A stretch of 64,000 nucleotides of DNA from Bacilli bacterium (GCA_022647725.1 JALCLG010000001.1:1069535-1133534), one strand, 5' to 3'; numbered from the stretch's first letter, positions 8,661 through 64,000 are shown. The notes: generated by a model from the letters alone, not told the origin. Numbers and translations: made by a program.

Positions 8661-8892
8661 TTTTCGGAGTCCCCAAAGTTTACCCCGCATCTCTATTATA
8701 CAGAACCTACAAAAAAAGTCAAAAAAGCAGGGCCTTTTTATCAAAAGTTGTGACAATTGTCCTTAAAATACATTATTTATAAAGACACCTCTTTTAAACA
8801 AATAACACGTTAGTTAAGCCTAAATATGAAAAAAAGACTTCCTTTTAAGGAAGCCTCTTTCATTCATAAGATTACCAACAGAGAACGAAACG

Positions 8893-41236: not shown

Positions 41237-41238
41237 AG

Positions 41239-41499
41239 TCAGGCCGTGGCCTTAGCGTCAACTTTGCCCTTCACAAAACGGACAACATCGGCAATGGTAA
41301 TGAATTTCCGCATTTGCCGATCAGAGATCTTGATGTCATAGATTCCTTCCAGCTTGGAGATGATGAGGACAAAGCCCATGGAGTCAATGTTGGTTTCGGT
41401 ATTGATGACGGTCTCCATAGCCAGCGGTTTGTCCGTCAGTTCAGGAACATAGTCATGAATCAGCTTAATCAATGTGTCGTAGATATCCTTTTCTTCCAT
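41239..41499 (-). CDS. Acyl or peptidyl carrier protein (phosphopantetheine attachment site)
   Basis: The protein is 86 aa. NIDSMGFVLIISKLE carries the DSx Ser motif, as in DltC and ACP carriers. It sits between the ligase and the thioesterase. Confidence 0.7.
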   Translation of the reverse strand: MEEKDIYDTLIKLIHDYVPELTDKPLAMETVINTETNIDSMGFVLIISKLEGIYDIKISDRQMRKFITIADVVRFVKGKVDAKATA

Positions 41500-41501
41500 A
41501 C

Positions 41502-42887: not shown

Positions 42888-42915
42888 GGCATTAGTATAC
42901 GTAAAACAGAAACTC

Positions 42916-42937
42916 TTAGCAAGGCTTGGAATGCTAA
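42916..42937. promoter_or_regulatory. Inverted repeat TTAGCA-N10-TGCTAA in the divergent promoter region of the ligase operon and the oxidoreductase operon; a -10 TATAAT lies at about 42973
   Basis: The half-sites are perfect 6-bp inverted repeats. The -10 TTATAAT lies upstream of ATG 43017, which has a GGGAGG RBS. Confidence 0.35.
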
Positions 42938-43016
42938 ACGTGAAAGCTCTTTTATGTTTTGGCTTTTCATGTTATAATAACCGAGTCAGTTGCGAACAAA
43001 AAGGGAGGCCTTAACT

Positions 43017-44402: not shown

Positions 44403-44406
44403 AATT

Positions 44407-45942: not shown

Positions 45943-45943
45943 C

Positions 45944-47122
45944 ATGAAAGTCAAATCGTTCTTCACGGATGTCGGCGGCGCTGACCGCGTCACCAAGCGA
46001 CGTGAGCAGCTGTTTGATTCGGCCAGCCCGAAAGAGGATTTCTCCGATCCTATCAATAAGGTCGCCAAAGAGCTGCATCCGGATCCGCTGGATGTCAAAG
46101 TCACGAAGGTCGAAGATGTCTCTCCGACCGCCCGCAAATACACGTTTGTCGCAGTCAATGGAGTTTTGCCGCCGTTCCAGGCGGGACAGTTTGTTTCCCT
46201 GCAGTTCAAGATCGGAAACACCCTGACCTGCCGTCCGTATTCGATCTGCTCCGCGCCGTATCAGGCCCGCGGGAAGGATCCCTTCTTTGAGATCACTGTC
46301 CGTAACGGCAAGGCCGATGGCTTTGTCGCCAACTGGATCTATTCATCCTTAAAGGAAGGGATGATCCTGAAAGCCTGTCTGCCGTTAGGCCATTTCTTCA
46401 TCGAAGAGCTCCGTGACAGCAAGAACGTCGTCGCTTTGGCAGGCGGTTCTGGCATCACGCCGTTCTATTCGATGGCTCAGGAGATTGCCCATGGCACCTT
46501 GGATGCCGACTTGACCATCCTCTACGGTTCCAACACCACGGACGACATCATCCTCAACAAGGAGATCTCAGCCATCCATTCCGACCGGGTCCATTTCGTC
46601 AATGTCATTGCCAAGGATCCCAATTATCCGGGAGAGAAGGGCTTCATCAACCGTGATCTGATCAAGAAATATTCCAAGGGCGATACCAGTTACTTCGTCT
46701 GCGGACCGTTACCGATGTATCAGTTCATCGCCAAAGAGCTAGCTGCTCTTGAGATTCCGTTACGTCGGATCCGGATGGAAGTCTTCGGTGCGCCGAAGGA
46801 TGTCTCCAAAGCGGAAGGCTATCCGATTGAAATGCTGGATAAGACCTTCAAGCTGACGGTTGTCCGGGGCGTGCAGAAGGATGTCATCGACTGCTTTGCC
46901 AAGGAGCCTCTGGCCGTGGCCATCGAGCGGACGGGCATTCCGTTCCTGACCGATTGCCGGAGCGGCGAATGCGGCTTCTGCCGCAGCGAGCTTCTCAGCG
47001 GCAACGTCTTCGTCCCGCAAGTCGGCGACGGCAGACGGGCGGCCGATAAGGAAGCCGGCTACTGCCATCCGTGTGCGACTTACCCCTTAAGCGACATCAC
47101 CCTGAAGATTCCGATCATCTAG
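45944..47122 (+). CDS. Ferredoxin-NAD(P)+ reductase-like flavoprotein with a C-terminal 2Fe-2S ferredoxin domain
   Basis: The FAD-binding motif is RPYSICS. The NAD-binding motif is ALAGGSGITPF. The C-terminus DCRSGECGFCRS...C supplies the plant-type 2Fe-2S Cys ligands. Confidence 0.75.
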   Translation: MKVKSFFTDVGGADRVTKRREQLFDSASPKEDFSDPINKVAKELHPDPLDVKVTKVEDVSPTARKYTFVAVNGVLPPFQAGQFVSLQFKIGNTLTCRPYSICSAPYQARGKDPFFEITVRNGKADGFVANWIYSSLKEGMILKACLPLGHFFIEELRDSKNVVALAGGSGITPFYSMAQEIAHGTLDADLTILYGSNTTDDIILNKEISAIHSDRVHFVNVIAKDPNYPGEKGFINRDLIKKYSKGDTSYFVCGPLPMYQFIAKELAALEIPLRRIRMEVFGAPKDVSKAEGYPIEMLDKTFKLTVVRGVQKDVIDCFAKEPLAVAIERTGIPFLTDCRSGECGFCRSELLSGNVFVPQVGDGRRAADKEAGYCHPCATYPLSDITLKIPII

Positions 47123-51100: not shown

Positions 51101-51170
51101 TCAAATGACGTCAAATGAAATCAAATAAGAAATTAAGCCCAAAATGGACGATAGCGTCGATACCGATTGG
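51101..51170. repeat. Direct repeat A (GTCAAATGAAATCAA motifs plus the 3'-terminal coding region of the AlbA_2 gene)
   Basis: This copy is about 84% identical over roughly 62 nt to the copy at 52682..52743. Confidence 0.6.
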
Positions 51171-52593
51171 AATTTTGGGTACCGGCATATTTCAGCAGTC
51201 CTTTCTCTACGCAGCGAATTAAAAGCCGAGAAATGGTTGCTGCCTCTTTGCTACTGAAATTTAATCTTGTACGGACATCCTCATTGGAGGTGAGTTTGTC
51301 ATTGACTTCGTTATAACAGGAAAGAACATAGCAGGTATTGATACGGTCTTCTTCAGACCAATCCTTACGATTTTCATAATGACGGATGATGGTTCTTGAA
51401 TAATCGTTCTCAGCCACAAATACGGGTGATGGTTCTTTTATCTCGGCCATAGCTTCTTCAATCCGATCAAAGCCTGAGCTACGTTGCTCACAAATGGTGA
51501 CGCTGCGGAGAAAAGCAGCCATTTTTTCGTTTCGGCAGTGAGTGACGGTATCAATGAAACGAGCCGGATCAATCAAAGGCTTCCCTGGGGTTGTCATTTC
51601 AATGCGGAAAGGAAATACTTCAATAAGTGACTGGATACCCAAATGACTATAATCTTGATGGATAATGAGATTGCCAAGCATTTCACGTAAAGCTTCTTCG
51701 GGGAATAAGGGAAAAGTCTTTCTTAATCCGCCTTCTATTTTTTCTACCTGCGGGATTACTCCTCTAAGGAAACGGAGAATGTCTTCAAAAGATGCTGCAT
51801 ACCCCTTGGAAAAAGTTTCGTCTCCGATCGTGGACGTCCTTGAGTTACTGGAATACTTTAATATTCTCACTCCTTTTTCCTGAAGCCCTGGGAAGGATGA
51901 AAAATCATTAGCAAAAAGCAAGGCTCCCATATTTGTTATTGAAAAGGAGCCGGCATCATCTTTAACGATAAATCCTTCATCAAGAAAACTTTCAATAATA
52001 CGATCCATGCTGGTGGGTAAAGAAATTTTCTTTAAACGGAAATAGGCATTGAAGTCAAGCAAGGCTGCGACCTCTTCGGGTTTTAGGTGTGATTTGGAAA
52101 GACTGGTTTCAAAACTTTTTCCTCGAATTGCGGAAAATAGTTCTACTTCTCTGGCGGGAACGTCTTGCTTCTTTTTGAGGCTCGAACCGACACGGTAGTA
52201 ACTCATATTCTCAAAGCAAGTTGGTTCATAGAAGGCAGCAGGAATTTCTAAAAGTGATACTGGTTTTCCTTCTGAATAAAAGAAACGATAAGGGCGTAGA
52301 GCAAGGTTTGGTGAAAGCAAACGATTGATCCAATTTAATAGAAGCTCGCCGCTTTTCCTGGCTTCAAGGATGTTAAAAGAGGTTCCGATGACGTCGTGCT
52401 TTTCTCCGTCCTGTATTCCCCAAACAAGATAACCGCATTCCTTTCCAGCAATGGCGGCTTCGTTACTTAAAGCCGAAATATACTGGCCGAGGAGTTCTGG
52501 TGAAGCGTTGCTATCTTTGAATTCGACCCATTCACATTCACCTTTCTTACTTCTTAGCTCATCCACGAGTTCTTTATAATAGGAATCTTCCAT
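51133..52593 (-). CDS. AlbA_2 (Schlafen-like) DNA-binding domain plus divergent-AAA/HATPase-like protein (often annotated as RecG-related transcriptional regulator)
   Basis: The N-terminus E...WVEFKDSNASPELLGQYISALSNEAAIAGKECGYLVWGIQDG matches the AlbA_2 domain. The protein is 486 aa. Confidence 0.6.
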   Translation of the reverse strand: MEDSYYKELVDELRSKKGECEWVEFKDSNASPELLGQYISALSNEAAIAGKECGYLVWGIQDGEKHDVIGTSFNILEARKSGELLLNWINRLLSPNLALRPYRFFYSEGKPVSLLEIPAAFYEPTCFENMSYYRVGSSLKKKQDVPAREVELFSAIRGKSFETSLSKSHLKPEEVAALLDFNAYFRLKKISLPTSMDRIIESFLDEGFIVKDDAGSFSITNMGALLFANDFSSFPGLQEKGVRILKYSSNSRTSTIGDETFSKGYAASFEDILRFLRGVIPQVEKIEGGLRKTFPLFPEEALREMLGNLIIHQDYSHLGIQSLIEVFPFRIEMTTPGKPLIDPARFIDTVTHCRNEKMAAFLRSVTICEQRSSGFDRIEEAMAEIKEPSPVFVAENDYSRTIIRHYENRKDWSEEDRINTCYVLSCYNEVNDKLTSNEDVRTRLNFSSKEAATISRLLIRCVEKGLLKYAGTQNSNRYRRYRPFWA

Positions 52594-52660
52594 TTTGATT
52601 ACCTCTCTGTCAAATGAAAAGCATCGATAATTACCTTATATTATAAAGGTTTTATTAATT

Positions 52661-52745
52661 GTGTCAAATGAAATCAAATAACGTCAAATGAAATCAAGTA
52701 AGAAATGAAGCTCAAAGTGGTCGATAGCATCGAGATCAATTCGAC
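52661..52745. repeat. Direct repeat B: two GTCAAATGAAATCAA motifs plus a degenerate remnant of a homologous gene 3' end
   Basis: It aligns to 51109..51170. The reverse-strand reading contains ...RCYRPL*, a degenerate version of the intact gene's C-terminal NRYRRYRPFWA. Confidence 0.55.
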
Positions 52746-52919: not shown

Positions 52920-54701
52920 ATGAAACGAAGAATCTTCCGGTCGCTTTCAGTCGGCGTCCTGTCGGTGACGATGGGACTCCTTTGCGGTTGCAAAAAGACT
53001 GAGACAAGCACTGCGAAAGATACCATTTCGGTCATGATAGAAGAGGGTGCTAACTATGCTGTCCCTACTCCTGTTCAGGAAATAACCCGTGGCAGCGATG
53101 TCACCTTCGAGGTCATGCTGCTGAATGGCTGCTCCCTAACCGGGGTCAGCTATTCTGAGTCGAAGATTGAGGAACATCCGGGCTATTCTCTTCTGACCCT
53201 GATGTCGGTTCTCTATCCGACGGTCGTCAGCCTTACCGCCAGCGTCCGTGAGTTTGTCACCTATGATGCCAATGGTGGTCAAGCCAAGGACAGCGACGGG
53301 AAGACGGCTGTCAGCCTTGCCAAGAGCACCTCTCACCTCCGGGCAAACAGTGCTTTGGGAAACTCGCTTTTCAAACGGGACGGTTACCTTCAGGATGGCT
53401 GGAACACGAAGGCGGATGGCAGCGGCGAAGCGATTCTTCAGGGCTCGCGGATGCCTAACGGAATTTCTACTCTTTATGCCCACTGGGTCAAGGAGACGGA
53501 TTCCAGTTGCTTTGAATATGAAATCCTTTCCGACAATACCGCCCGGATTAACTCTCTGAAAACCCCTACTGACCCGTTGGTTATTCCTCATACCTTAGCG
53601 GGACACACCGTATCTTCGCTTGGAAGCGGCAGTCTTGCCCATCAGACCCTTTCGGATCTTTATCTTCCGGAGACGCTTGAACGTATCGAAAACGGCGCCT
53701 TTCAGTCTTGCACGATAAAGACTCTGACCCTCTTTGATAACCTTGCCTATCTGGATGATGCTTCCTTTGTCTCCTCGCCGGTCACGATGCTGCGGATTCA
53801 GGCCTATACCAAACCCTGTTACAGCGGCACCTACTTCGATGCCTTCCAGGATAAGCTCGATTATCTGGATTCCATCAAGGACCAGAAGAAGATTGTTCTC
53901 TTCTCCGGTTCCTCTGCCCGGTATGGCTATTATTCTCCGCAATTAGCGAAGGACTATCCATCCTACAAGGTCGTCAATATGGGTGTTTTTGCCTACTTCC
54001 CAGCCTTAGTGCAACTGGATATCATTCGCACCTATCTTCTTCCGGGAGATGTCGTCATTGATTCTCCGGAGTTTGATGCCTACGACAACCAGTTTTGCTA
54101 TAACCACGCCTTCGAGGACCGGCTCTTTGCCATGATGGAATCCGGCTATCAGGTTCTGACCCTTGTGGATTTGACCCGCTATACGGAGGTCTTCTCCTCT
54201 TTCTATCGGTATATCTCCAACAAAAAGACCTTGCCTGTCTCCTCCTATGAGGTCTCAGCCAAGCACTTCGATGATGATATGAATACCTATAACTTGGATA
54301 CGTACAACGTCGAAGGCGACTTCATCCTGCCCCGGAATGGAACCCAGACCGAAGGCCGGATCTTCCAGCCTTATCTGGATCTGACTCTGGATTCGTATCA
54401 GGACACTCATCTGACCGCGTTGAATCTGGCTGCCAAGGAGTTCACCGATCAGGGGATTTCTTTCTACTTTACGTTCTCGCCTCGGAACAAAGATTCCCTG
54501 ACGGAAAACAGCACCTCTGACAAGAGAGCTCTGCTGGAGAGTCACCTCCGTGAAATCCTCACCATGCCGATTCTCGGCACGTTGGAAGACCTGCTTCTGC
54601 CGGCCGGTGATTTCTATCTCATCGATAACCATCTCACGACGGCGGGCGCCAGCTGGCGGACTGATTATGTCAGCAAAGCCCTGAAAGCTTATTTAGCTTA
54701 A
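52920..54701 (+). CDS. Lipoprotein with a List_Bact-type repeat, BspA-type LRR modules and a C-terminal DltD/AlgJ-like (SGNH-like) domain
   Basis: The lipobox is LCGC. The Listeria-Bacteroides repeat signature is FVTYDANGG...RDGYLQDGWNTKADGSG. LRR modules follow (LYLPETLERIENGAFQSCTIKTLTLFDN). The C-terminal region KKIVLFSGSSARYGYYSP...GDVVIDSPEF resembles DltD-family proteins and is paralogous to the adjacent gene. Confidence 0.55.
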   Translation: MKRRIFRSLSVGVLSVTMGLLCGCKKTETSTAKDTISVMIEEGANYAVPTPVQEITRGSDVTFEVMLLNGCSLTGVSYSESKIEEHPGYSLLTLMSVLYPTVVSLTASVREFVTYDANGGQAKDSDGKTAVSLAKSTSHLRANSALGNSLFKRDGYLQDGWNTKADGSGEAILQGSRMPNGISTLYAHWVKETDSSCFEYEILSDNTARINSLKTPTDPLVIPHTLAGHTVSSLGSGSLAHQTLSDLYLPETLERIENGAFQSCTIKTLTLFDNLAYLDDASFVSSPVTMLRIQAYTKPCYSGTYFDAFQDKLDYLDSIKDQKKIVLFSGSSARYGYYSPQLAKDYPSYKVVNMGVFAYFPALVQLDIIRTYLLPGDVVIDSPEFDAYDNQFCYNHAFEDRLFAMMESGYQVLTLVDLTRYTEVFSSFYRYISNKKTLPVSSYEVSAKHFDDDMNTYNLDTYNVEGDFILPRNGTQTEGRIFQPYLDLTLDSYQDTHLTALNLAAKEFTDQGISFYFTFSPRNKDSLTENSTSDKRALLESHLREILTMPILGTLEDLLLPAGDFYLIDNHLTTAGASWRTDYVSKALKAYLA

Positions 54702-56111
54702 CGGATAAAGCCTATCGGCATAGGCCGACCAGGTGTAGTTCATTTTGTAATCCGTGAGAGCATCGCTAGGAACATAAAGGTTGGCATTCGTCCCTTTTAA
54801 GAGACCTTGGCCGACTGCCAAGGTGCTCGGCTTCGGATTGAGGATCCGGATCTCTTTTAAGGCAGGAAGCTTACTGAAAGAGTCATCCTCGATGAAGCGG
54901 AGGCTGGACTGCAGCATCAGACTTGTCAAGGTATCGGAAACAAGAGCCCCAGACGTAAAGGAAGTCACCCTCTTTCCGTGATAGCTGAACGGGACAATCA
55001 GGCTCTTTTTGGTCTGACCCTCGCTGGAAAGACCCGTCACCGTTGCTTCCGTGTCCGTTTCGGAATAAGTAAAGCCACTGGCATCCGTGACATCGCCGGT
55101 GGTCTGACTTTCCGGCGGAATGACCGGCAGGCTGGGATCCGGGATGGACGTTTGCGACGTATCCTTTAAGACCAGCTTCAGATCCTGAATCAGAGCTTTG
55201 GTGAAAAGGATGGCTCCGCTGTTGTTGAGGTGGAAGTTGGTGTCGTAGAACCAACCGCTGTCCAAAAGAGAGCTGTGCGGATTCCCCAGGATCGGGAAGG
55301 TGAGCTGACTGGCTAAATAGTCGTAATACGAATCGAGGTTTCCGCTGACGACAGCCTTCGCATTCATCGGAGCAAACCGGTAATAGACTTTAGTCCCTCT
55401 TCCCGTGACATCCTTAGCATAATTATTGAGGTAACTTACGAAATCCTTGGCAATGACATTCTGCGCCAAATAAATCGGAGTGGTTCTGTCGTAGCCTCCG
55501 GAAAGGAGGTTATACTGACAGTCCTCATACTGGATATCGCCATAGGCATCAAAAGAGTCCCGGTTATAGATGCCGCCGGGGTCAATCACCTTTCCGGAGG
55601 CGACATAGGACAGCTTCTCTCCGGCAAAGGACGGCAGATCTCCGATCATCCGTTTGCGGTCTTCCCACGACACCTTGTTGACTAAACCGAAGTCACCGTC
55701 ACAGGCTTCCCACATGCTCTTGCCGTTGAAGTAGAGGGAAAGAGTCTGAGCATTCTGCTCCGGCGAGATGACGACCAGGTCATCCTTGGTCAGATACGGC
55801 TTAGCAAGATCCAGCATCACCTTGGTTCCTAAGGAGGCATACATGCCAAAGTCGATCGTCGTATAGGACGGGAGCTGTTCTTCGACTAACGGACACCTTA
55901 GACTGAAAGGAACCGAGCTTCCCCCGATGACGACGATCTTCTTGCCGGTCGTCTCCTGAAGACGCTTTACTTTGTATTTGAGCTCTCCGGTGAAGGCTTT
56001 GTCAAACTGCGTCGGCAATCCGAAAGCCGTGACGGACACAAACAAAGGTCCTGCTAAGAGAGCACAGGCCAGCGTCACGCTAAGGATCACCGCTTTGGTT
56101 TTGTTTTTCAT
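54693..56111 (-). CDS. DltD/AlgJ-like extracytoplasmic protein (membrane-anchored) with a C-terminal BspA-type LRR extension
   Basis: An N-terminal TM anchor is present. KKIVVIGGSSVPFSL and DLVVISPEQN resemble the DltD GSSE region. The C-terminus SLIVPFSYHGKRVTSFTSGALVSDTLTSLMLQSSLRFIEDDSFSKLPALKEIRI has LRR character. The gene lies immediately downstream of the MBOAT gene. Confidence 0.6.
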   Translation of the reverse strand: MKNKTKAVILSVTLACALLAGPLFVSVTAFGLPTQFDKAFTGELKYKVKRLQETTGKKIVVIGGSSVPFSLRCPLVEEQLPSYTTIDFGMYASLGTKVMLDLAKPYLTKDDLVVISPEQNAQTLSLYFNGKSMWEACDGDFGLVNKVSWEDRKRMIGDLPSFAGEKLSYVASGKVIDPGGIYNRDSFDAYGDIQYEDCQYNLLSGGYDRTTPIYLAQNVIAKDFVSYLNNYAKDVTGRGTKVYYRFAPMNAKAVVSGNLDSYYDYLASQLTFPILGNPHSSLLDSGWFYDTNFHLNNSGAILFTKALIQDLKLVLKDTSQTSIPDPSLPVIPPESQTTGDVTDASGFTYSETDTEATVTGLSSEGQTKKSLIVPFSYHGKRVTSFTSGALVSDTLTSLMLQSSLRFIEDDSFSKLPALKEIRILNPKPSTLAVGQGLLKGTNANLYVPSDALTDYKMNYTWSAYADRLYPLS

Positions 56112-56114
56112 GGG

Positions 56115-57575
56115 TCAGAACTGGAAATAGATAAATCCGCTTTCTCCTTTCGTCGACAACAGATACAGCCAGGAGACCGTAACCGTCACGATCAATGTGA
56201 CATAGATGAGGGAGACCTTGGAAAGCTTGGAAAAGTCAATCTTCCCCTGATCATCCTTAACCATCGCAAGTCTGGGAAGATAAGGAAGAATCAGGACTAA
56301 GACAATCGCTCCTAAGGTCGCCGGAATCATCATCCGGTTATCGAAGAAAGCAAAGCCGTCGCCGGTTAAGAACGACGTAAAGATCTTCTCAAAGCAGAGG
56401 AAGGCCTCCTCCACGCTTTGGCTGCGGAAGAAGATCCAGGTCAAGGTCACGAAGACAAAGGTCGTCAGGATGCGGAAAAGATGGTAGCCTTTCTCGTTCC
56501 AGTGATGCTTGGCACGGAAATCAGCAAAAGGCTTACCCACCAAATCCTCGAATCCGACGGCTAAGCCATGACAGACTCCCCAGAGGACGAAGGTCCAGTT
56601 GGCACCATGCCAGAGTCCGCTTAAGGTAAAGACGATCAGCACATTGAGAAGCTGTCTTGGCTTGCCTTTCCGATTGCCGCCTAAGGGAATATAAAGATAA
56701 TCGGTCAGCCACCGGCTCAAGGTGATATGCCAGCGTTTCCAAAAGTCCCGGACGGAACAGGCAAGGTAGGGCTTATCGAAGTTATCCGTGAGCTTGATTC
56801 CCATCAGCCGGGCGGAGCCGATGGCGATATCGCTGTAACCGGAGAAGTCGGCATAGATCTGGAAGAAGAATAAGAGAGTCGCTACCAAAATGCTGGCACC
56901 GGAGGCCGTGTCCAAGGACCCGTAGACCGGGTCAACGGCCAAGGCCAGAAAGTCGGCAACCACGACCTTTTTGACGAATCCGGAAATCAGATACTGTAAG
57001 CCGATGCTGCCGTTTTCAAAGGAGAGCGTCTGCTTTGTCTTCAATTGCGGAAGCAGCTCTTCCGGACGCTCAATCGGACCCGCCACCAATTGAGGAAAGT
57101 AGCTGACATAAAGGGCGTAGTAGAAAATGTTTCTTTCGGCGGCAAACTTGCCATGGTAGACATCGATGACATAGCTTAAGGTCTGGAACGTATAGAAGGA
57201 GATGCCGATGGGAAGGATAATCGCAAGCGCCGGGTCACTCCAGTTGGCATGGAAGAGATTGGCTAGGGACACGACGCTGGTGATGGCAAAGTCAAGATAC
57301 TTGAAGACAAAAAGCAACAACAGACAGGCCGTGACGGTAAGGACCATCCACGCCTTCTTCTTTTTCGGATTTTCAGTCTTCTCAATCCCGAGGCTTCCCC
57401 CATAGGTCATGAGGGTGGTTGCCAGAATCAGGAAGATCAGCCACGGATTCAGGAAGGCGTAAAAGAAATAGGAGGCAACCAACAGGAAATAGACCCGGAA
57501 ACGGAACGGCAAAAGCCAGTAGATCAGAAGAACAACCGGCAGATAAATCAGAAAAGCCAGGGAGTTAAAGCTCAT
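56115..57575 (-). CDS. MBOAT-family membrane-bound O-acyltransferase (AlgI/DltB/PatA-like)
   Basis: The protein is 486 aa and polytopic. The MBOAT motifs include LPIGISFYTFQTLSYVIDVY and the conserved His region WHGANWTF...LWGVCHG. Confidence 0.9.
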   Translation of the reverse strand: MSFNSLAFLIYLPVVLLIYWLLPFRFRVYFLLVASYFFYAFLNPWLIFLILATTLMTYGGSLGIEKTENPKKKKAWMVLTVTACLLLLFVFKYLDFAITSVVSLANLFHANWSDPALAIILPIGISFYTFQTLSYVIDVYHGKFAAERNIFYYALYVSYFPQLVAGPIERPEELLPQLKTKQTLSFENGSIGLQYLISGFVKKVVVADFLALAVDPVYGSLDTASGASILVATLLFFFQIYADFSGYSDIAIGSARLMGIKLTDNFDKPYLACSVRDFWKRWHITLSRWLTDYLYIPLGGNRKGKPRQLLNVLIVFTLSGLWHGANWTFVLWGVCHGLAVGFEDLVGKPFADFRAKHHWNEKGYHLFRILTTFVFVTLTWIFFRSQSVEEAFLCFEKIFTSFLTGDGFAFFDNRMMIPATLGAIVLVLILPYLPRLAMVKDDQGKIDFSKLSKVSLIYVTLIVTVTVSWLYLLSTKGESGFIYFQF

Positions 57576-57819
57576 GGGCTTTCTCCCTGGCTAAAAATCC
57601 ACTTAACGACCCGACGGAGAGAATCAGAAAGGAGACGACGATCTCAACGGCACTGACCTGATCGACCCACAGCAGAATGAGATAACCGGCGACGGCCAGG
57701 ATTCCTAACAGGGGAATCCACCAGCCCTTCTTGACGAAGAAGCCGCTGGCTAGCAGAACAAGAAAGACCAGGATAAAGAGAGAAAGCAGAAGTGGTGACG
57801 ACAGAATCTGGCTGTTCAT
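57565..57819 (-). CDS. Small membrane protein (2-3 TM helices) translationally coupled to the MBOAT gene; DltX-like position
   Basis: The protein is 84 aa and hydrophobic. It overlaps the MBOAT start by 11 nt. Confidence 0.4.
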   Translation of the reverse strand: MNSQILSSPLLLSLFILVFLVLLASGFFVKKGWWIPLLGILAVAGYLILLWVDQVSAVEIVVSFLILSVGSLSGFLAREKAHEL

Positions 57820-57875: not shown

Positions 57876-59840
57876 CTAAGCAGCGAAACGCTGAGCGTCC
57901 TTGGCTTTGGCCTGGCTTCTCAGCTGAGCGTATTCGGCGCTGAGGCTGGCATCATAGGCGGCTTTCTTCTCCGCCGCTTCCTTTGCCTTAGCCTCTTTGG
58001 CAGCCTTTTCTTCCGGCGTCAGCTTATTTTCTTCTTCGGTCTTCTTGGCTTCGGCTTCCTTAGCCTTGGCTTCCTTCTTCGACTCCGCTAAGGCCTTCTT
58101 TTCGGCCGCCTGCTTGTCCTTGATGGCTTTCTGATCTTCGTACTTCTTCTCTTCGGCCTCAAAGTTGAGACCCTTCTTCTCACAGGTTGCCTTCAGCTCG
58201 GCTTTGCGGGCTTCCTCGGCCTTCTCGTCCAGCTCTTTCTGCTCATTGGCTAAACGGACAGCCGGCTCGACATAACTGACGCCGTTAGCCAGACATTTGG
58301 CTTTCTGGTCTTCGGTGATAGCCGCCTGATCGAGCTTGGAGAACTTCTCGACGTTCATGAAGAGGAACATGATGCCGATCGCTAAGTAGGCAATGGCTTC
58401 GCCGCCGAAGAAGATCCAGCTTAAGGCAGTCTTGGCAGCATCAGGCTGACCGGAGACTGCTAAGGTCGCATCATAGCCGGTCTGCGAAAGGACACCGTTG
58501 ATGATGCCGTTGGCCAGACCGTTCATACCGATCATGATGGCACCGTAGATTGACATCGTGAAGCCATCGGTCCGGAAGCCATGAAGAGCTTCCTGATGAT
58601 CAAGCACATCCGAGAGCAAGGCCAGCGAGACATACATCGCCGGCACACTGCCGAGGGCTTTGATGACAAAGGCTGCTACGGCAACCGGGACGTTGTTGGC
58701 ACCCCAGAAGATGCCGATGACGCCGCCGATGACGGATAAGAGGGCACCATAGAGGATGGACTTGCCCTTGCCGAACTTGTTGGCTAACGGCCAGACAATC
58801 AGCATGCCGACACCGGTCGGAATGGCACCGATGGTATTGATCAGAGAATTGACGATGCCGCCGTAGGTGGTGTTGTAGGTGGCTCCGTTAAGACTGGCGA
58901 CACGGCTTGAATCCGGATCAGCAAAGAGCCACTGCGAGTAATACGTGCAGGAGCAATTCTTCAGCTGACCGCCAAGCTGGTAAAGGAGGAAGAAGAGGAT
59001 AATAAACCACCAATACTTATCACTGACGCAGACTTTCATCTGCTTGGTCATCGAGATGGTGTTGGCTTTCGTCTCCGGGATGCCTAAGGCCAGATTCTCC
59101 TCAGTGATCCGCTCTCTTGTGAAGTAATATTCAATCAGCATGCCGATGGCGGAGACGACAATGAGGATGATCATGAAGACACGCCAGGCATTGTAGGAAG
59201 CCAACGGATCGCCATCCTTGAACAAGAAGCTCTGGAAGAGCGGGAAGACCATGTTGCAGGCCAGACCCACCGCGGCCAGACCGGAAGCATTGGAAGCCGT
59301 GGCTAACAGGCCACGGTGATTGGAGTTACGGGTCGAAAGGTTGACCAGAGCGGAGTGAGCGACATAGTAGAACGGATAGGAGATGGCATAGTAGAGGTTA
59401 TAGCCGATGGCGACCCAGATCAGGGTTGCCATCGAATTCTCAGCGGTCGGATTATCGGCCGGATACGGTGCGAAGAACAAGAGGAAGATAGCCACGGCAA
59501 TAAGCGGAATGGCTAATAAAAGAAGCGGTCTTGCCTTGCCGGCATGCGTCTTGTTCTTGTTCATCAGCCGGCCGACCAGAAGATTGCCTAAGACGACGGT
59601 GATGACCGAGATGATCGGTAACCAGATTGAGAAAGCCTTGGCCCAGCTCGTCAGGCCTAAGACATCGGTGTAATACTTGTTGAGATAGCCGTTCAGCAAG
59701 GCATTCGAGAATAATGCCAGTGCCGGACCGACCAGATAACCTAAGGCGGCCTCCGGGAAGAGCTTCACATTGGCGCTCTTGACCTTGGTCGACAGAACCG
59801 GATTGTCGAAGAAACTCTTCTTTGTTTTGGCTTCTGCCAT
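57876..59840 (-). CDS. MFS transporter of the glycoside-pentoside-hexuronide (GPH):cation symporter family with a roughly 175-aa Lys/Glu/Ala-rich C-terminal tail
   Basis: There are 12 predicted TM segments in a GPH-like arrangement. The C-terminus KAEEARKAELKATCEKK...KEAEAKKTEEENKLTPEEKAAKEAKAKEAAEKKAAY is low-complexity and probably helical. The gene is adjacent to a GH78 rhamnosidase gene. Confidence 0.8.
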   Translation of the reverse strand: MAEAKTKKSFFDNPVLSTKVKSANVKLFPEAALGYLVGPALALFSNALLNGYLNKYYTDVLGLTSWAKAFSIWLPIISVITVVLGNLLVGRLMNKNKTHAGKARPLLLLAIPLIAVAIFLLFFAPYPADNPTAENSMATLIWVAIGYNLYYAISYPFYYVAHSALVNLSTRNSNHRGLLATASNASGLAAVGLACNMVFPLFQSFLFKDGDPLASYNAWRVFMIILIVVSAIGMLIEYYFTRERITEENLALGIPETKANTISMTKQMKVCVSDKYWWFIILFFLLYQLGGQLKNCSCTYYSQWLFADPDSSRVASLNGATYNTTYGGIVNSLINTIGAIPTGVGMLIVWPLANKFGKGKSILYGALLSVIGGVIGIFWGANNVPVAVAAFVIKALGSVPAMYVSLALLSDVLDHQEALHGFRTDGFTMSIYGAIMIGMNGLANGIINGVLSQTGYDATLAVSGQPDAAKTALSWIFFGGEAIAYLAIGIMFLFMNVEKFSKLDQAAITEDQKAKCLANGVSYVEPAVRLANEQKELDEKAEEARKAELKATCEKKGLNFEAEEKKYEDQKAIKDKQAAEKKALAESKKEAKAKEAEAKKTEEENKLTPEEKAAKEAKAKEAAEKKAAYDASLSAEYAQLRSQAKAKDAQRFAA

Positions 59841-59860
59841 AAAGGATATTCCCCTTTCTC

Positions 59861-62425
59861 CTAAGCCAGCGACACCGTTTCGGTGACATCGCCGCTAGGA
59901 TAGACTTTTTCTTTGCCATTGGGTAGGCCGATGACACTTTCGGTTCCCATTGGGACGTGAACGGTTAACGTAAACGTCTTGCCTTCGACTTTCCAGGCCA
60001 CATGGATGGGACCGTTGGGAGTCAAGGTCGTTGTCTCACAGGAGGTGATGCCTCCGCCTAAGACCGGCTTGACTAAGAAGCGGCGATAGCCCGGTTCCAG
60101 GATACGGACACCGGCCAGCCGGGTATAGAGGAAGTTGCCGACGCTGCCTAAGGCATAGTGGTTGAAGGAGATCATGTTGCCGGTACCATCGGTGGAGGGT
60201 CTGGCCGTGCCGTCAGCTAACTGACCATCGAACTTCTCCCAGATGGTCGTCCCGCCGACTTTGACGTTGTAAAGCCAGCTCGGCGCTTCGGTATTCAAGA
60301 GCATCTTGTAGGCGACATCGCTATGGCCGTTATCGGCCAGGGCATAGAGGATATACGGCGTTCCCGGGAAGCCGGTGCCGATCTTGTAGTTGTTCTTCTC
60401 AATCAAGCTAACCAGATTGTCGATGGCCTTGGTCCGCATCTCCGGCGTCAGCATTTCGAAGTGGATCGGTAAGACATAGCCTGTCTGGAACTCCTGCTTC
60501 TTCAGCTTGCCCGTCTCTTTGTCTAAGAAGATATCGCTGTAGGCTTTGGCTACCTTGTCGGAATACTTGATCAGCCGGTCGGCATCCTCGTTCTTGCCGA
60601 GATACGAGGCAATCTTGGATAGGAGCATGGTGGTTCGCCGCAAGCTGGCCGTGGCGGTATACATGGACCGCTTCTGCCAGGCACTCATCTTATCGATGTC
60701 CGGTGCGACCCAGTCCCCGAAGTGAAGCATGCTCGGCGTATGCCAGATATACCGGTATTCGCCGACTCCCCAGATCCGGGCCCAGAACTTGCAGGCATTG
60801 ACATACTTCATCATGGCCGGATACATCCGTTCCAGCATGCCCTTGTCGGCATAGCTGAGATAGAGGCAATACGGCACCGTCACAATGGCATCGCCCCAGA
60901 AGTCCACGGCCATCTTCGGCATCGTGGCCGGGAACTTATAGCCATGGCAGGGAACCGTATTCGGAACACCGCCGGTGGGAAGCTGCTCTGAGCGGACATC
61001 CTTGAGCCATTTGATGAGGAAACGTTTCATCTGGAAGTCGTAGCAGGCGGTCGGTCCGAAGATTGACACATCGCCGGTCCAGCCCATCCGTTCATCCCGC
61101 TGTGGACAATCGGTCGGAATATCCATGAAGTTGCTTCTCGCTGACCAACGGATATTATGGTCGAGCTGATTGAGCATCTCGTTGGAGCAATGGAACGAAC
61201 CCGTCTCCGGCAAGTCACTGGTAAGGTGATAGCCGATGACTTCGACATCCTCCGGAGCAATGCCCTCCACTGAAATATAACGGAAGCCCATATAGGTGAA
61301 CTCCGGCGCATATTCCTGTTCACCATCCTTGCAGTGAATTGTCAAGGTCGCTTTGGCTGAACGGAGCAAGGAAAGGTTTAGCTCCCCTTCCTTGGTCAGG
61401 ACTTCGGCGTGATGGACCACAATCGTCTGACCCTTCTTGGCATGATGAATCTTCAGGCTGACAATACCTGAAAAGTTCTGCTTGAAATCATAAAGTGTTT
61501 TGCCTGCCTCTTTCCGTAAGATAACAGGAATCATTTCACGGTTACGGACAATCGGACAGGAATAATCAGCGACAATCTCCGGATGGATGGACACCTTCTC
61601 CAGCCCTGCCTTATGGTAAGGAAGAGCCAGGATATCCTGGGTAAGATCAACGGTTTCGCCATCATAGATGTCGGCCATCTGATACGGGCCCTTTGTGGTG
61701 ACATCAAAGGAGGTATCCGACGGAATCACCACTTGGCTGCCATCGTCATACTGAACCCTCAGCTCCATCAGAAGACACTGACGCTTGGCATACTGGCGGT
61801 TGACTCGTGTGAAGACAAAGCTACCCACTGCCCAGCCGCCGGCCACATGGATGACAAGGTCGTTATGGGCCTGAAGCAGGTCTTTGACATCATAGGTCTG
61901 ATACATCAGATGATAGCGGTAGGACGTAAAGCCCGGTGCCAGATAGGCAGTGCCTACCTTTTTGCCGTTAAGATTGATCCAGTAGGTGCCTAAGGCCGTG
62001 GCATAAAGCTTGGCGGAGACAATCTTCTTTGCAAAATCCAGGCTCTTATGGAACGTCATGACCTGCGGAGAAACCTTCTTCTCCGTGAAGGAATACGTGG
62101 TATCCGTAATCGGCTTTCCGACCCACGGTGTCGTTAACCGTCCCGTCTCAAAAGAGACCGTCGCTGTGGCCGTTTCACCCTGAGCATCCTTGACAGTCAA
62201 GGTTGCCTTATAGGTGGTAAAAGGCTCTAAGGCTTTGCCGGAGTAGACAAAGTCTGACTTCTCCGTCATCTCCTGATGGGAGCCGTTATCGAGGTCAAGG
62301 CTGGCATAGACAACCTTGTTGTTGGGCTTGTCGCTTTCGCAGTAATAGCCGAAAACCGGCGCCGGGTTGTCTGTGACAACAGGACGCAGGGTTCCTTCGA
62401 CCGTCAGATCATGAATACTCAGCAT
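59861..62425 (-). CDS. Alpha-L-rhamnosidase (glycoside hydrolase family 78)
   Basis: The protein is 854 aa. The N-terminal domain, the Bac_rhamnosid six-hairpin catalytic region (DCPQRDERMGWTGD) and the C-terminal beta-sandwich are present. Confidence 0.9.
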   Translation of the reverse strand: MLSIHDLTVEGTLRPVVTDNPAPVFGYYCESDKPNNKVVYASLDLDNGSHQEMTEKSDFVYSGKALEPFTTYKATLTVKDAQGETATATVSFETGRLTTPWVGKPITDTTYSFTEKKVSPQVMTFHKSLDFAKKIVSAKLYATALGTYWINLNGKKVGTAYLAPGFTSYRYHLMYQTYDVKDLLQAHNDLVIHVAGGWAVGSFVFTRVNRQYAKRQCLLMELRVQYDDGSQVVIPSDTSFDVTTKGPYQMADIYDGETVDLTQDILALPYHKAGLEKVSIHPEIVADYSCPIVRNREMIPVILRKEAGKTLYDFKQNFSGIVSLKIHHAKKGQTIVVHHAEVLTKEGELNLSLLRSAKATLTIHCKDGEQEYAPEFTYMGFRYISVEGIAPEDVEVIGYHLTSDLPETGSFHCSNEMLNQLDHNIRWSARSNFMDIPTDCPQRDERMGWTGDVSIFGPTACYDFQMKRFLIKWLKDVRSEQLPTGGVPNTVPCHGYKFPATMPKMAVDFWGDAIVTVPYCLYLSYADKGMLERMYPAMMKYVNACKFWARIWGVGEYRYIWHTPSMLHFGDWVAPDIDKMSAWQKRSMYTATASLRRTTMLLSKIASYLGKNEDADRLIKYSDKVAKAYSDIFLDKETGKLKKQEFQTGYVLPIHFEMLTPEMRTKAIDNLVSLIEKNNYKIGTGFPGTPYILYALADNGHSDVAYKMLLNTEAPSWLYNVKVGGTTIWEKFDGQLADGTARPSTDGTGNMISFNHYALGSVGNFLYTRLAGVRILEPGYRRFLVKPVLGGGITSCETTTLTPNGPIHVAWKVEGKTFTLTVHVPMGTESVIGLPNGKEKVYPSGDVTETVSLA

Positions 62426-62483
62426 AAGCTGCTCCCTTCATCTCTCTCATCTATTTTAATAAACAACGGCTCGGAAAGGATAG

Positions 62484-62522
62484 AAAGAAAAGGGCAGGCG
62501 AGAGATCACCTGCCCTTTTCTC
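62484..62522. terminator. Bidirectional rho-independent terminator
   Basis: The hairpin GGGCAGGcgagagatcaCCTGCCC is flanked by an A-run and a T-run. Confidence 0.55.
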
Positions 62523-62536
62523 GAGTTTCAGATAGG

Positions 62537-63049
62537 CTAGGCGTTAACCTTATCGGCGGCAGCCGGAGCAACGGCCTTCTTCGCAGCGAAGAAAGCAGCG
62601 ACCACGGTGATGATCTGAGCAATCAGGTCGATGACGAGCGTAATGATGCTGGTCTTCAGAGAAGCCATATTGCTGGCCGTCTGGACTTCAGCCTTGACAT
62701 CGGCGTTGGAGCCAAGAATGTAGGCAAAGCCCTCAATACGAGGCGATAAGAAGAGAAGGAAGGCAGCCATCAACAGGACCGGAACACCAATGGCTAAGAC
62801 ATCATCGACGATTTCGACGATCTTGCCGACAATGCCGGCAAATTCGAACTGACGGAGAACAACAATGCCGCAGATGGCAAGCAGGGCAAGGATGAAGAAG
62901 ACGATGACGGTTCCGGAAGTCATACCCTGGAAGTAACCGGCAGCGCCGTTATTGACTAAGGCGAAGATGAAGGCTAAGAGAGTGAAGACAAATCCGACAG
63001 CGTACAGGAAGAAAGCAGGCGTCTGCTTCTTAATGAAATCTTTCGACAT
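62537..63049 (-). CDS. Small polytopic membrane protein (4 TM, hypothetical) downstream of the GH3 gene
   Basis: The protein is 170 aa and hydrophobic. Its start is 3 nt after the GH3 stop. Confidence 0.4.
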   Translation of the reverse strand: MSKDFIKKQTPAFFLYAVGFVFTLLAFIFALVNNGAAGYFQGMTSGTVIVFFILALLAICGIVVLRQFEFAGIVGKIVEIVDDVLAIGVPVLLMAAFLLFLSPRIEGFAYILGSNADVKAEVQTASNMASLKTSIITLVIDLIAQIITVVAAFFAAKKAVAPAAADKVNA

Positions 63050-63051
63050 GA

Positions 63052-64000
63052 TTAGTTCTCCTCCTTTTTGGCAAGAGCAACCGTCAGGGCATAGAGGACG
63101 ATAGAGGCAGCGGAGAGAACAGAGAAGATGACGATGGCAGCTTTCAGTCCGGCTTCCCAGCTCGGAGTGACACGCGTCGTGGTGACGTTCATGATGGCAG
63201 AATTGGAGAAGGCATAGAGCTGATACTTGAGATCCTGACGGGCCTGATTGACTAAGGTCGCATCATTCTTGACGGCAGCAACGGAGATGTAAGACCACGT
63301 GGCATCATTGCCAGTCTTGCCACCGCTGATGGTGGAATTCTCACCGGCGAAATCAGCCATCTGTGTGATACCCGCCATGATGCAGGACTCCGGATTGAAG
63401 TAATAACTGTTAGACATCATATCCGTGGAAGAAAGGCCAGTGAAGCCCCATTCATCACGGATCAGCTTCATCTGTAAGCCCGTATCTGCGGAAGCGTTGG
63501 TGGCACCAATACGGTTGAAGGCAACCATCAGGCCTAAGGCACCCTGATCTTCAATGGCACCCTGGAAGCCACGGATATCGGTCTCACGGAACTTCTGCTC
63601 ATTGAGATAGACAGAGATACCCGAACGGTTATGTTCCTGATCGTTGAAGCCGATGTGCTTCGGACCAACGATGATACCGAACTTCTTGCTGCCTTCGATG
63701 ATGCCTGCGCCGAGGATGTTGGAAAGCATCGGATCTTCGCTCGGATATTCGGTGTTACGGCCGTTGTAGGGATCACGATGATAGTTGACGGCAGCACCCC
63801 AGATCTGGTAATTGCCGATCCAAAGACCGGTATTGCCTAAGATCTCGCCCCAATCTTCAGCCAGCTTCGGCGAGAAGCAAGTTCCTAAGAGGGACTGCGA
63901 ATTGATGTTGGCTAAGAATTTGCCTTCGGTCGTATCCTTGTCGACATAGTAAGGATCGGTTCCCTGGGTTCCGTTGTTGGTGGAAAGCGACTTGCTGTTG
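63052..64000 (-). CDS. Glycoside hydrolase family 3 protein, C-terminal part (the 5' end lies outside the window), with a C-terminal TM segment
   Basis: The frame is open to the window edge. The translation ...AAVNYHRDPYNGRNTEYPSEDPMLSNILGAG...KHIGFNDQE...GALGLMVAFNRIG contains the GH3 GRN(F/T)EY..EDP signature. The track ORF begins at internal Met 63729. Confidence 0.75.
   Translation of the reverse strand, partial: NSKSLSTNNGTQGTDPYYVDKDTTEGKFLANINSQSLLGTCFSPKLAEDWGEILGNTGLWIGNYQIWGAAVNYHRDPYNGRNTEYPSEDPMLSNILGAGIIEGSKKFGIIVGPKHIGFNDQEHNRSGISVYLNEQKFRETDIRGFQGAIEDQGALGLMVAFNRIGATNASADTGLQMKLIRDEWGFTGLSSTDMMSNSYYFNPESCIMAGITQMADFAGENSTISGGKTGNDATWSYISVAAVKNDATLVNQARQDLKYQLYAFSNSAIMNVTTTRVTPSWEAGLKAAIVIFSVLSAASIVLYALTVALAKKEEN

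Follow-up and report, generated by a model that had tools for sequence, protein, structure and literature searches.

MBOAT-SGNH systems decorate peptidoglycan, teichoic acids, alginate, cellulose and secondary wall polysaccharides, and such decorations control lysozyme resistance, resistance to antimicrobial peptides and immune recognition. In the alginate system (AlgI/AlgJ/AlgF/AlgX), as in that of cellulose (WssH/I/G/F), a single MBOAT serves two paralogous SGNH-like proteins; in the case of alginate AlgJ carries an N-terminal TM anchor and AlgX is soluble or peripheral with an extra binding module (CBM), while AlgF is a non-catalytic element that joins the two. The acetyl group has been proposed to travel from the MBOAT to the first SGNH protein, on to the second and then to the polymer, in a relay that involves a protein-protein mediator (PMC10641220). 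AlgJ and AlgX are circularly permuted, with the order H-S-G-N and a Tyr in block III (PMC9487903). The Dlt system (DltB/DltX/DltD), which D-alanylates teichoic acid, has one SGNH protein and carries its FXYXXF motif on a microprotein, whereas MBOATs of the PatA/AlgI type bear this acyl shuttle themselves and have it charged from acyl-CoA; for PatA, auto-acetylation of the motif from acetyl-CoA has been shown (PMC12148441). The PatA/PatB system of Gram-negative peptidoglycan O-acetylation consists of two proteins, with no LRR, second SGNH protein or microprotein.

The window (i.e. the complete stretch of 64,000 nucleotides that was analysed) contains a locus that shares features with each of these systems. 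An ORF check of 52920..57819 returned the four ORFs that had been proposed, with unchanged coordinates: protein A on the plus strand and, convergent to it on the minus strand, protein X, the MBOAT and protein B. X overlaps the start of the MBOAT gene by 11 nt, a Shine-Dalgarno sequence for the latter is visible, and only 3 nt separate the MBOAT stop from the start of B; the X/MBOAT overlap is consistent with translational coupling. The original prediction had read the MBOAT, a membrane-anchored SGNH protein with a DltD-like fold and a small membrane protein as a cassette, and had described two partners that carry BspA-type LRRs in inverse arrangement and a paralogous catalytic domain; Pfam, BLASTP and HHalign agree with both descriptions. 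The module is set apart by its architecture, in which LRR modules are built into two putatively catalytic SGNH paralogues and a microprotein is added. We consider it a conserved machine of gut Clostridia, very probably serving to translocate acyl (probably acetyl) groups across the membrane. The clade is large; no publication that describes it turned up in the literature searched, and it falls outside the family models of Pfam and NCBIfam.

The MBOAT and its microprotein

The MBOAT (486 aa; 56115..57575, minus strand) scores 111.9 bits against PF03062 (cutoff 27; E 5e-32) and DltB (6bug) aligns to it with an E-value of 1e-27, the predicted catalytic His323 (codon 56607..56609) lying in SGLWHGANW, the counterpart of the conserved WHG. 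At its C-terminus it carries the candidate acyl-shuttle motif FIYFQF (56118..56135, with Tyr483 at 56127..56129), which recurs as F[IL]YFxF in 77 of 78 orthologous loci. The protein is some 60 residues longer than DltB, which has neither its two additional helices nor its fused FXYXXF. By this motif, fused onto extra C-terminal helices, the enzyme is predicted to be of the PatA/AlgI type. Although the DltB equivalog TIGR04091 is its best NCBIfam match, the score of 161.4 bits stays far under the cutoff of 375, and neither dltA nor dltC nor dltX adjoins the gene.

Protein X (84 aa; 57565..57819, minus strand) is a hydrophobic microprotein with about three TM segments, as judged by eye, and Glu59 opens its last helix. 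It has no match in Pfam or NCBIfam; in 74 of 76 loci a profile built from clear examples finds a match in the 600 nt that precede the MBOAT gene. X can be described as a conserved membrane subunit. Equivalence to DltX was considered and rejected: X ends in FLAREKAHEL, and the family consensus has no FXYXXF Tyr motif.

Two paralogous SGNH proteins with LRR modules

Protein B (472 aa; 54693..56111, minus strand) consists of an N-terminal TM helix, as in AlgJ, an SGNH domain, a Pro/Ser/Thr linker and a C-terminal BspA-type LRR module (residues 342-472; 54696..55088). The anchor (residues 2-31; 56019..56108) is a helix in the structure model and hydrophobic in sequence, and the SGNH-fold domain that follows (residues 32-319; 55155..56018) has a large helical insert between blocks II and III where PatB has beta-hairpin 'wings'. 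With this anchor and insert B is structurally similar to DltD, which is also the closest solved SGNH protein by aligned length.

Protein A (593 aa; 52920..54701, plus strand), for which 523 homologues were found, combines a signal peptide, a lipobox, an N-terminal beta-rich region, a Flg_new repeat, an LRR and a C-terminal SGNH-fold domain (residues 297-593; 53808..54698), and with its additional modules resembles AlgX. It is a predicted lipoprotein by its signal peptide and by the lipobox Cys24 (MGLLCGC24K; codon 52989..52991), a residue that is invariant in the A-family alignment; at least 47 of 55 A orthologues have a lipobox. The Listeria-Bacteroides repeat (Flg_new; residues 113-188; 53256..53483) scores 27.0 bits against PF09479, exactly at the cutoff of 27.0, and 14.1 bits against TIGR02543 (versus 20.95), and many A orthologues have the same precomputed match. 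The short BspA-type LRR (PF13306; residues ~193-315; 53496..53864), which begins with TDSSCFEYEI, reaches 28.5 bits for LRR_5 (cutoff 27.7) and matches PDB 4gt6 with an E-value of 4e-5; BLASTP aligns it with the LRR of B (E 4e-6), the starts of the two modules being paralogous. The fold check called for at the outset returned the SGNH fold for the catalytic domains of A and B, and Pfam LRR_5 and the LRR solenoid fold for the repeat segments.

The paralogy of the catalytic domains is apparent from BLASTP (residues 323-592 of A versus 57-315 of B, E 4e-18) and from HHalign of the two families (99.9% probability, E 7.5e-33). The segments KKIVLFSGSS and KKIVVIGGSS, which had been compared in the original prediction, represent SGNH block I with the nucleophiles Ser331 of A and Ser65 of B. 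In canonical order the Ser of block I, the Asn of block III and the His of block V are present and invariant per family, as is an Asp in block V, i.e. Ser65 (55917..55919), Asn250 (55362..55364), Asp290 (55242..55244) and His294 (55230..55232) in B on the minus strand, and Ser331 (53910..53912), Asn523 (54486..54488), Asp569 (54624..54626) and His571 (54630..54632) in A on the plus strand, so that both SGNH domains look catalytic. The canonical DxxH of block V is absent: A has D569-N-H571 (DxH) and B has D290-T-N-F-H294 (DxxxH), which places the acid at His-2 and His-4, respectively, versus the canonical His-3.

Among the window proteins and 30 relatives of B there was no match at E<=1 to the DltD family (PF04914) and no Pfam match to the AlgX family (PF16822). 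Membership of the AlgX family was rejected, given the order S...N...H with an Asn in block III instead of the permuted arrangement with Tyr, and so was membership of the DHHW family (PatB1, PF14286), given that both the DHHW motif and a Pfam match are missing.

The fusion of LRRs to an SGNH domain had been considered unusual. This view is not supported, as nearly all members of a very large family carry the LRR: LRR_5 is found in 27 of 30 relatives of B, also in longer variants, and a search with the SGNH domain of B alone yields about 2,600 clusters at 50% identity. In some genomes, from many independent sources, B and A are moreover joined in one protein of ~975 aa without a lipobox, and since both then reside in a single chain, A and B work together. 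Indirectly, these fusions lend some support to the proposal of the LRRs as scaffolds for a protein partner. In the structure model of a fusion (pTM 0.68) the A-like half is confident, the linker (472-482) is disordered and the two halves are without confident packing. Natural B-A fusions offer a ready single-chain system for the debated SGNH-to-SGNH acyl relay of AlgJ/AlgX.

Distribution and genomic neighbourhood

The module is present in 133 species genomes. Among its hosts are major gut commensals, including Lachnospiraceae, Oscillospiraceae (Faecalibacterium, Gemmiger, Pseudoflavonifractor) and Erysipelotrichaceae. Among 83 loci the order A>X>MBOAT>B prevails (53), eight have an MBOAT followed by a B-A fusion, two are convergent as here, and 20 have no A, these mostly on truncated contigs. 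B is found without the MBOAT in five loci, all of which are truncated on the upstream side. In a few loci whose flanks exceed 5 kb (L008, L009 and L072) there is no A nearby, and therefore B alone may suffice in some genomes.

Upstream of X the window continues, on the same strand, with genes for sugar utilisation. A GPH/MFS_2 glycoside:cation symporter (57876..59840; PF13347 E 1.5e-51, TIGR00792) lies 56 nt upstream of X and is shared by 14-16 related loci. It is followed by a GH78 alpha-L-rhamnosidase (59861..62425, minus strand), identified by Pfam, with no obvious signal peptide and present in 9-10 related loci, and by a 170-aa multi-TM (4-TM) protein, 'p150/p170' (62537..63049, minus strand), which has no Pfam or NCBIfam match, recurs in 16-18 related loci and always adjoins a GH3 gene. 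The GH3 beta-glucosidase-type enzyme itself is represented by its C-terminal part (63052..64000, minus strand) as it is cut by the window end; in full it is a domain-permuted protein of ~1060 aa with a C-terminal TM anchor (complete in L084/L085), identified from the Pfam and PDB matches of the orthologue in L052. GH3 is linked to the module in 35 of 80 loci, from 21 lineages and in three placements, often with gaps below 100 nt, and about 40% of the loci have none of the GH3, GH78 and GPH neighbours. The module is, in short, recurrently operonic with a surface-anchored GH3, the 4-TM protein, a GPH transporter and GH78/rhamnose genes. The original prediction had overlooked this conserved linkage to a surface GH3/rhamnoside-utilisation locus. 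As a rule the module adjoins sugar-harvesting genes rather than genes of cell-wall synthesis. At the related loci neither polysaccharide synthases nor teichoic-acid genes are co-conserved, and for a system that modifies the envelope such a catabolic setting is unusual. The linkage raises the possibility that surface acylation in these hosts is coupled to the use of diet-derived glycans.

Further away, the window encodes an AMP-ligase and a carrier (41239..42887) and two free LRR proteins (LRR_5 at 182 bits for 7008..8756 and 176 bits for 8893..10209), all of which exist as had been indicated. By score, the ligase is MenE/FadD-like and the carrier resembles a fatty-acid ACP. An acyl-ACP thioesterase gene adjoins the pair. 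Of the 83 related loci, one has the ligase and none has the carrier or the thioesterase.

A proposed acyl relay and the alternatives

We judge it somewhat better than even that the four proteins make up a bacterial system of the MBOAT-SGNH type for the extracytoplasmic transfer of O-acyl groups, most likely O-acetyl, and that it probably works as a relay. By its motif and the precedent of PatA, the MBOAT would use His323 to take the acyl group from cytoplasmic acyl-CoA and load it onto Tyr483 of its own FIYFQF at the external side of the membrane. The shuttle would then pass the group to Ser65 of B, as the fold, anchor and invariant residues of B suggest, B being kept at the MBOAT by its N-terminal TM helix like DltD, AlgJ and PatB. 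From there it may move to Ser331 of A and on to a surface or extracellular glycan acceptor, parallel to AlgI>AlgJ>AlgX; this last step is proposed because A and B are paralogous, strictly co-occur and are fused in some genomes, and the order B then A would follow by analogy. The LRR and Flg_new modules, as permanent parts of both SGNH proteins, most likely tie A to B and/or bind the acceptor, a role that can be likened to that of the separate AlgF together with the carbohydrate-binding module of AlgX. The counterpart of AlgF would then be these modules or the covalent fusion. In contrast to the alginate system, the module lacks an AlgF homologue, includes an extra 3-TM microprotein, and resides in Gram-positive-type (monoderm) gut Clostridia, outside polysaccharide synthase operons. 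With respect to the acceptor, the linkage to GH3, the 4-TM protein, GPH and GH78/rhamnose genes suggests a glycan or glycoside that contains glucose or rhamnose, rather than D-alanylation of teichoic acid.

Less probably, and on balance unlikely, B and A form two parallel branches that are each charged directly by Tyr483 and serve two acceptors or two positions of one, in which case the LRR and Flg_new modules would fix acceptor specificity. Such branching would accord with the full invariant catalytic set kept in both domains, with the flexible linker of the fusions, with the loci that appear to have B and no A nearby, and with the differing positions of the block V acid (DxH versus DxxxH), which suggest diverged active sites in A and B. 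Yet A has no membrane helix for docking on the MBOAT, a hand-over would account equally well or better for the recurrent fusion and the strict adjacency, and the alginate system speaks for a relay (PMC10641220).

The neighbouring surface GH3, GH78 and GPH genes also allow for an improbable reading in which A and B act on the exogenous dietary substrates of these proteins, either acylating released oligosaccharides or aglycones, or stripping acyl groups from plant glycosides, possibly back through the MBOAT. If true, no earlier MBOAT-SGNH system would match it in acting on non-self substrates, and it might also be a reverse acyl-salvage route; however, literature searches gave no precedent for action on exogenous substrates or in reverse, and we know of no MBOAT-SGNH pair that does either. 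Transfer from an O-ester to a thioester is furthermore energetically uphill, the neighbours are missing from the said ~40% of loci, and both SGNH proteins are tethered to the membrane, as is typical of systems that modify the envelope.

It is very unlikely that the LRRs recruit a protein substrate (such as a surface protein or the GH3) for acylation by the SGNH domains, even though LRR_5 and Flg_new are typical protein-binding or surface-protein modules and HHAT is a weak PDB match of the MBOAT (E 1e-4), eukaryotic MBOATs such as HHAT being enzymes that acylate proteins. No protein acylation by a bacterial MBOAT-SGNH system turned up in the literature searches, nor is one known to us, and the B-A fusions account for the LRRs without an external protein target. 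The free LRR proteins, which had been put forward as targets, lie 45 kb away and co-occur with the module in 0 and 2 of 83 loci.

A Dlt-like D-alanylation or carrier pathway, for which one could cite the best NCBIfam match of the MBOAT (DltB, 161 bits), the closest solved SGNH protein (DltD) and the AMP-ligase and carrier 12 kb off that had been proposed as acyl donor, is already effectively refuted: the DltB and DltD models are not matched at their cutoffs, the MBOAT has its own shuttle on two helices that are foreign to DltB, X lacks the Tyr motif of DltX, there are two SGNH proteins with LRR modules instead of one, DltA and DltC are not associated, and the MenE/FadD-like ligase, the ACP-like carrier and the thioesterase beside them are not co-conserved.

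The BspA/TpLRR-type surface proteins with LRR_5 are stand-alone adhesins, whereas the LRRs of the module are short (~4-5 repeats) and permanently joined to an SGNH domain. Also close to the module is PDB 2lz0, an orphan structural-genomics entry that had been deposited as a fragment without characterisation or functional context; the module now provides such a context.

The four genes and their protein families

The observation behind the original prediction is confirmed and its interpretation is partly supported. All four of its open reading frames were recovered where it had placed them, namely a lipoprotein with Flg_new, leucine-rich repeat (LRR) and C-terminal SGNH modules on the plus strand (A, 52920..54701, 593 aa) and, on the minus strand, a hydrophobic microprotein (X, 57565..57819, 84 aa), an MBOAT protein (56115..57575, 486 aa) and a protein with a transmembrane (TM) anchor, an SGNH domain and BspA-type LRRs (B, 54693..56111, 472 aa). 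The start of the MBOAT gene overlaps X by 11 nt, with its GGGAGA Shine-Dalgarno sequence inside X, only 3 nt separate the MBOAT stop from the start of B, and A and B are convergent with a 9-nt overlap. Pfam identified the MBOAT (PF03062, E 5e-32) and, within A, LRR_5 at 28.5 bits against a threshold of 27.7 as well as Flg_new, which at 27.0 bits lies exactly on its threshold of 27.0; LRR_5 was also matched in 27 of 30 B relatives that were scanned singly.

In the case of the domain shared by A and B, for which an HMM assignment had been proposed, no DltD, ALGX, DHHW or GDSL/SGNH model (Pfam, NCBIfam) matched either protein even at E<=1, and the same holds for the 30 B relatives scanned singly. 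The domain is recognised by fold search alone and not by sequence models. The claim that A and B carry paralogous DltD-like domains was borne out by BLASTP (A 323-592 versus B 57-315, 26% identity, E 4e-18), which also pairs the LRR starts of both proteins (E 4e-6), and by HHalign of the A family against the B family (99.9% probability, E 7.5e-33, 286 columns). The AlphaFold model of B (30 homologues) is confident (pLDDT 93, pTM 0.88), and the predicted SGNH fold of A in the window rests on its paralogy with B and on a fusion homologue (45% identical to A) whose A-like half is modelled with confidence.

Invariant residues are G63-G64-S65, N250 and D290...H294 in B, and G330-S331, N523 and D569-N570-H571 in A. 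Because these fall at the expected SGNH blocks of predicted secondary structure, both proteins look catalytically competent. The putative block V acid is located at His-2 in A (DxH; 54624..54632) and at His-4 in B (55230..55244), neither of which is the canonical DxxH, and the invariant Asn292 of B occupies the position matching the Asp of A. The DxH of A is shared with AlgX-type enzymes. The AlgX and DHHW families are defined as circularly permuted (PMC9487903), and the canonical S...N...H order of A and B therefore excludes both. A weak phmmer match of B to the alginate-binding protein PDB 6jbo (E 4e-4), which spans the TM segment and early SGNH domain, was taken as chance because no other analysis backs it. 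At the sequence level the module belongs to no curated SGNH family.

The MBOAT aligns with DltB structures (E 1e-27), with His323 within a conserved WHG; it is ~60 residues longer than DltB, scores 161 against the DltB equivalog model (cutoff 375), and ends in FIYFQF. A C-terminal F[IL]YFxF is found in 77 of 78 orthologous loci. FXYXXF is the 'acyl-shuttle' motif, which resides on the microprotein DltX in the Dlt pathway and is fused to the MBOAT in other MBOAT-SGNH systems; in PatA the motif Tyr takes up an acetyl group from acetyl-CoA by auto-acetylation and passes it to the SGNH partner (PMC12148441). Judged by its primary structure, the MBOAT is of the PatA/AlgI type and not of the DltB type. 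X has no such Tyr motif and is for that reason not a DltX. As X is too short and divergent for direct tblastn, a positional profile search was used, and in 74 of 76 loci the profile of X-like microproteins matches within 600 nt upstream of the MBOAT, with the consensus G-x-x-L-x-E-h-L-L, the Glu of which is Glu59 in the window.

Gene order, fusions and distribution

We surveyed 83 related loci (designated L plus a number), 80 from a peptide-pattern scan and 3 on metagenome contigs. The co-directional order A>X>MBOAT>B occurs in 53 of these, in 8 the gene downstream of the MBOAT encodes B and A as one fusion (~975-1000 aa), and 2 are convergent like the window; 20 loci, mostly on truncated contigs, have no A. 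The fusions come from many independent sources; their residues 14-466 match B (E 4e-100) and their residues 476-968 match A (E 6e-136). At least 47 of 55 orthologues of A are lipoproteins, but the lipoprotein leader is missing from the fusions. Gene order, fusions and the co-occurrence of X therefore imply that the unit comprises four genes and that A and B are functionally coupled; probably they are coupled physically as well. In the model of one natural fusion (P0126, 36 homologues) confident domains (pLDDT 89) flank a disordered linker (472-482), and the pTM is 0.68. The halves are tethered, yet the model predicts neither a fixed packing between them nor one solenoid built from both LRR pieces. 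Foldseek on this model returned BspA-type LRRs and, as best SGNH match, DltD.

The original prediction regarded the LRR-SGNH combination as unusual, whereas it is no isolated oddity: the family is large, has gone unstudied, and is carried by important gut commensals. The SGNH domain of B as query retrieved 2,634 clusters (50% identity) at E<=1e-3 and 284 at E<=1e-30, mostly of ~470 aa, with variants of ~705-750 aa that also carry LRR_5. Among the top 8,000 word-sharing candidates scored there are 364 relatives of B and 523 of A, named, where at all, only 'hypothetical protein' or 'leucine-rich repeat protein'. One peptide pattern led to 133 species-representative genomes, the carriers being Lachnospiraceae, Oscillospiraceae (Pseudoflavonifractor, Gemmiger, Faecalibacterium, Lawsonibacter), Erysipelotrichaceae, Schaedlerella and E. 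plexicaudatum ASF492. Literature searches yielded no paper on an LRR-SGNH/MBOAT system, nor any on an MBOAT located within a rhamnoside or beta-glucoside locus. PDB 2lz0, which was solved by NMR and deposited as an 'uncharacterized protein' of Bacteroides (now Pseudoflavonifractor) capillosus, matches with 100% identity the LRR tail of the B orthologue in this organism (8039..8326 of L035, the locus of strain ATCC 29799); a fragment of the B family has thus been solved without functional context.

Among the genome loci the convergent B><A order is found only in L066 and L083, both also with GH78, RhaD and RhaB; these are labelled as Paludibacteraceae and Prevotellaceae MAGs and represent either mis-binned Firmicutes contigs or horizontal transfer into Bacteroidota. 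In the window, a gene for a Schlafen AlbA_2 plus HATPase_c_4 protein (51133..52593, minus strand, 486 aa), preceded by a perfect TTGACA-16-TATAAT promoter-like site (52667..52640), lies between the rhamnose genes and A. It is found in 0 of the 83 related loci and may mark a rearrangement that inverted A.

A putative acyl relay

The best-supported reading of the module is an acyl relay, which we consider reasonably likely and which builds on observed domain identities, invariant residues, motif, co-occurrence and fusions. An acyl group would be loaded from acyl-CoA, the donor we infer, onto Tyr483 of the MBOAT in a step catalysed by His323, and would then pass to Ser65 of the TM-anchored B, from B to Ser331 of the lipoprotein A (a direction that we infer as well), and from there to the acceptor. 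The alginate machinery is the nearest working analogue: an acetyl relay has been proposed for AlgI, the TM-anchored AlgJ and AlgX (SGNH plus binding module), with AlgF as the non-catalytic mediator that keeps them together (PMC10641220). By analogy, the LRR and Flg_new modules, or a covalent link in some genomes, would fill the roles of AlgF and the CBM. The system differs from other MBOAT-SGNH systems in its two putatively catalytic SGNH paralogues with integral LRRs, its extra microprotein and its catabolic-locus context.

A DltA-like ligase and a carrier protein, originally put forward as the source of the acyl donor, have to be dropped. The AMP-ligase (41502..42887) scores as MenE/FadD-like, the nearby 86-aa carrier scores as a fatty-acid ACP, and the two are flanked by FAD oxidoreductases and an acyl-ACP thioesterase. 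Of the 83 related loci, 1, 0 and 0 have homologues of the ligase, the carrier and the thioesterase; a DltA/DltC link is rejected on these family scores and this lack of co-conservation. On the minus strand of 40526..47122, the acyl-ACP thioesterase, ACP-like carrier and MenE/FadD-like AMP-ligase are followed by a FAD/NAD/2Fe-2S reductase and two FAD proteins resembling amine oxidases or phytoene desaturases. This separate cluster has no relation to the MBOAT module and may serve to modify lipids or fatty acids. The free BspA-type LRR_5 proteins that had been suggested as targets (7008..8756, 182 bits, and 8893..10209, 176 bits, both minus strand) are genuine, yet they occur in 0 and 2 of the 83 loci; as they are not co-conserved with the module, they are rejected as its partners.

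Sugar-utilisation genes around the module

Neighbours were scored by grouping every ORF in the loci into clusters; 'c10_756' and a cluster of 38 loci on the strand opposite to the module were spurious antisense ORFs of high-GC genomes and were discarded. Of 80 loci, 35 encode a domain-permuted GH3 protein of ~1000 aa that is of the beta-glucosidase type (PDB 5k6l, E 6e-58) and is anchored by a C-terminal TM segment. The other recurrent neighbours are a 4-TM protein that matches no family (16 loci), a GPH/MFS_2 symporter (14), RhaB (10), GH78 rhamnosidase (9), RhaD (7), GH43 (7) and an Agr-like LytTR/GHKL two-component pair (12-14). The GH3-linked loci fall into 21 lineages (60% B identity or more; the median identity of B is 44%) and show GH3 in three placements relative to the module, with intergenic gaps that are often <100 nt. 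Among the ORF clusters of the loci, co-conservation with the module extends to no glycosyltransferase, synthase or teichoic-acid gene. This neighbourhood suggests that the relay acceptor is a glycan containing glucose or rhamnose. The recurrent GH3, GH78 and rhamnose neighbours would also suit a module that acts on exogenous glycans or glycosides, which we consider improbable.

The GH3, 4-TM, GPH/MFS_2, GH78, GH43 and rhamnose-catabolism neighbours are recurrently co-directional with the module and often operonic (L003, L005, L027, L034, L036, L038, L052, L064 and others, and 57876..64000 on the minus strand of the window). The minus-strand order in the window is GH3, p170 (a multi-TM protein without family match), a strong terminator-like hairpin (62522..62485, minus strand, 17-bp stem), GH78, MFS_2, X, MBOAT and B, and the hairpin would place GH3-p170 and GH78-MFS_2-X-MBOAT-B in different transcription units in this strain. 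The last ~150 aa of the MFS_2 protein (57876..58325) form a long cytoplasmic tail rich in Lys (30 of 149 residues), Glu (27) and Ala (36), probably coiled or disordered, which is missing in the one orthologue checked (L036, 493 aa). The Agr-like pair, a LytTR response regulator and a multi-TM GHKL HATPase_c_5 kinase, lies downstream of B (e.g. in L005, L013, L027, L034, L036, L069, L071 and L078) and may regulate the module.

Elsewhere in the window, two adjacent plus-strand genes (598..2100 and 2116..3933) encode lipoproteins with Ser/Thr-rich linkers, the second of which carries a staphylococcal-nuclease (SNase) domain and may be a surface nuclease.
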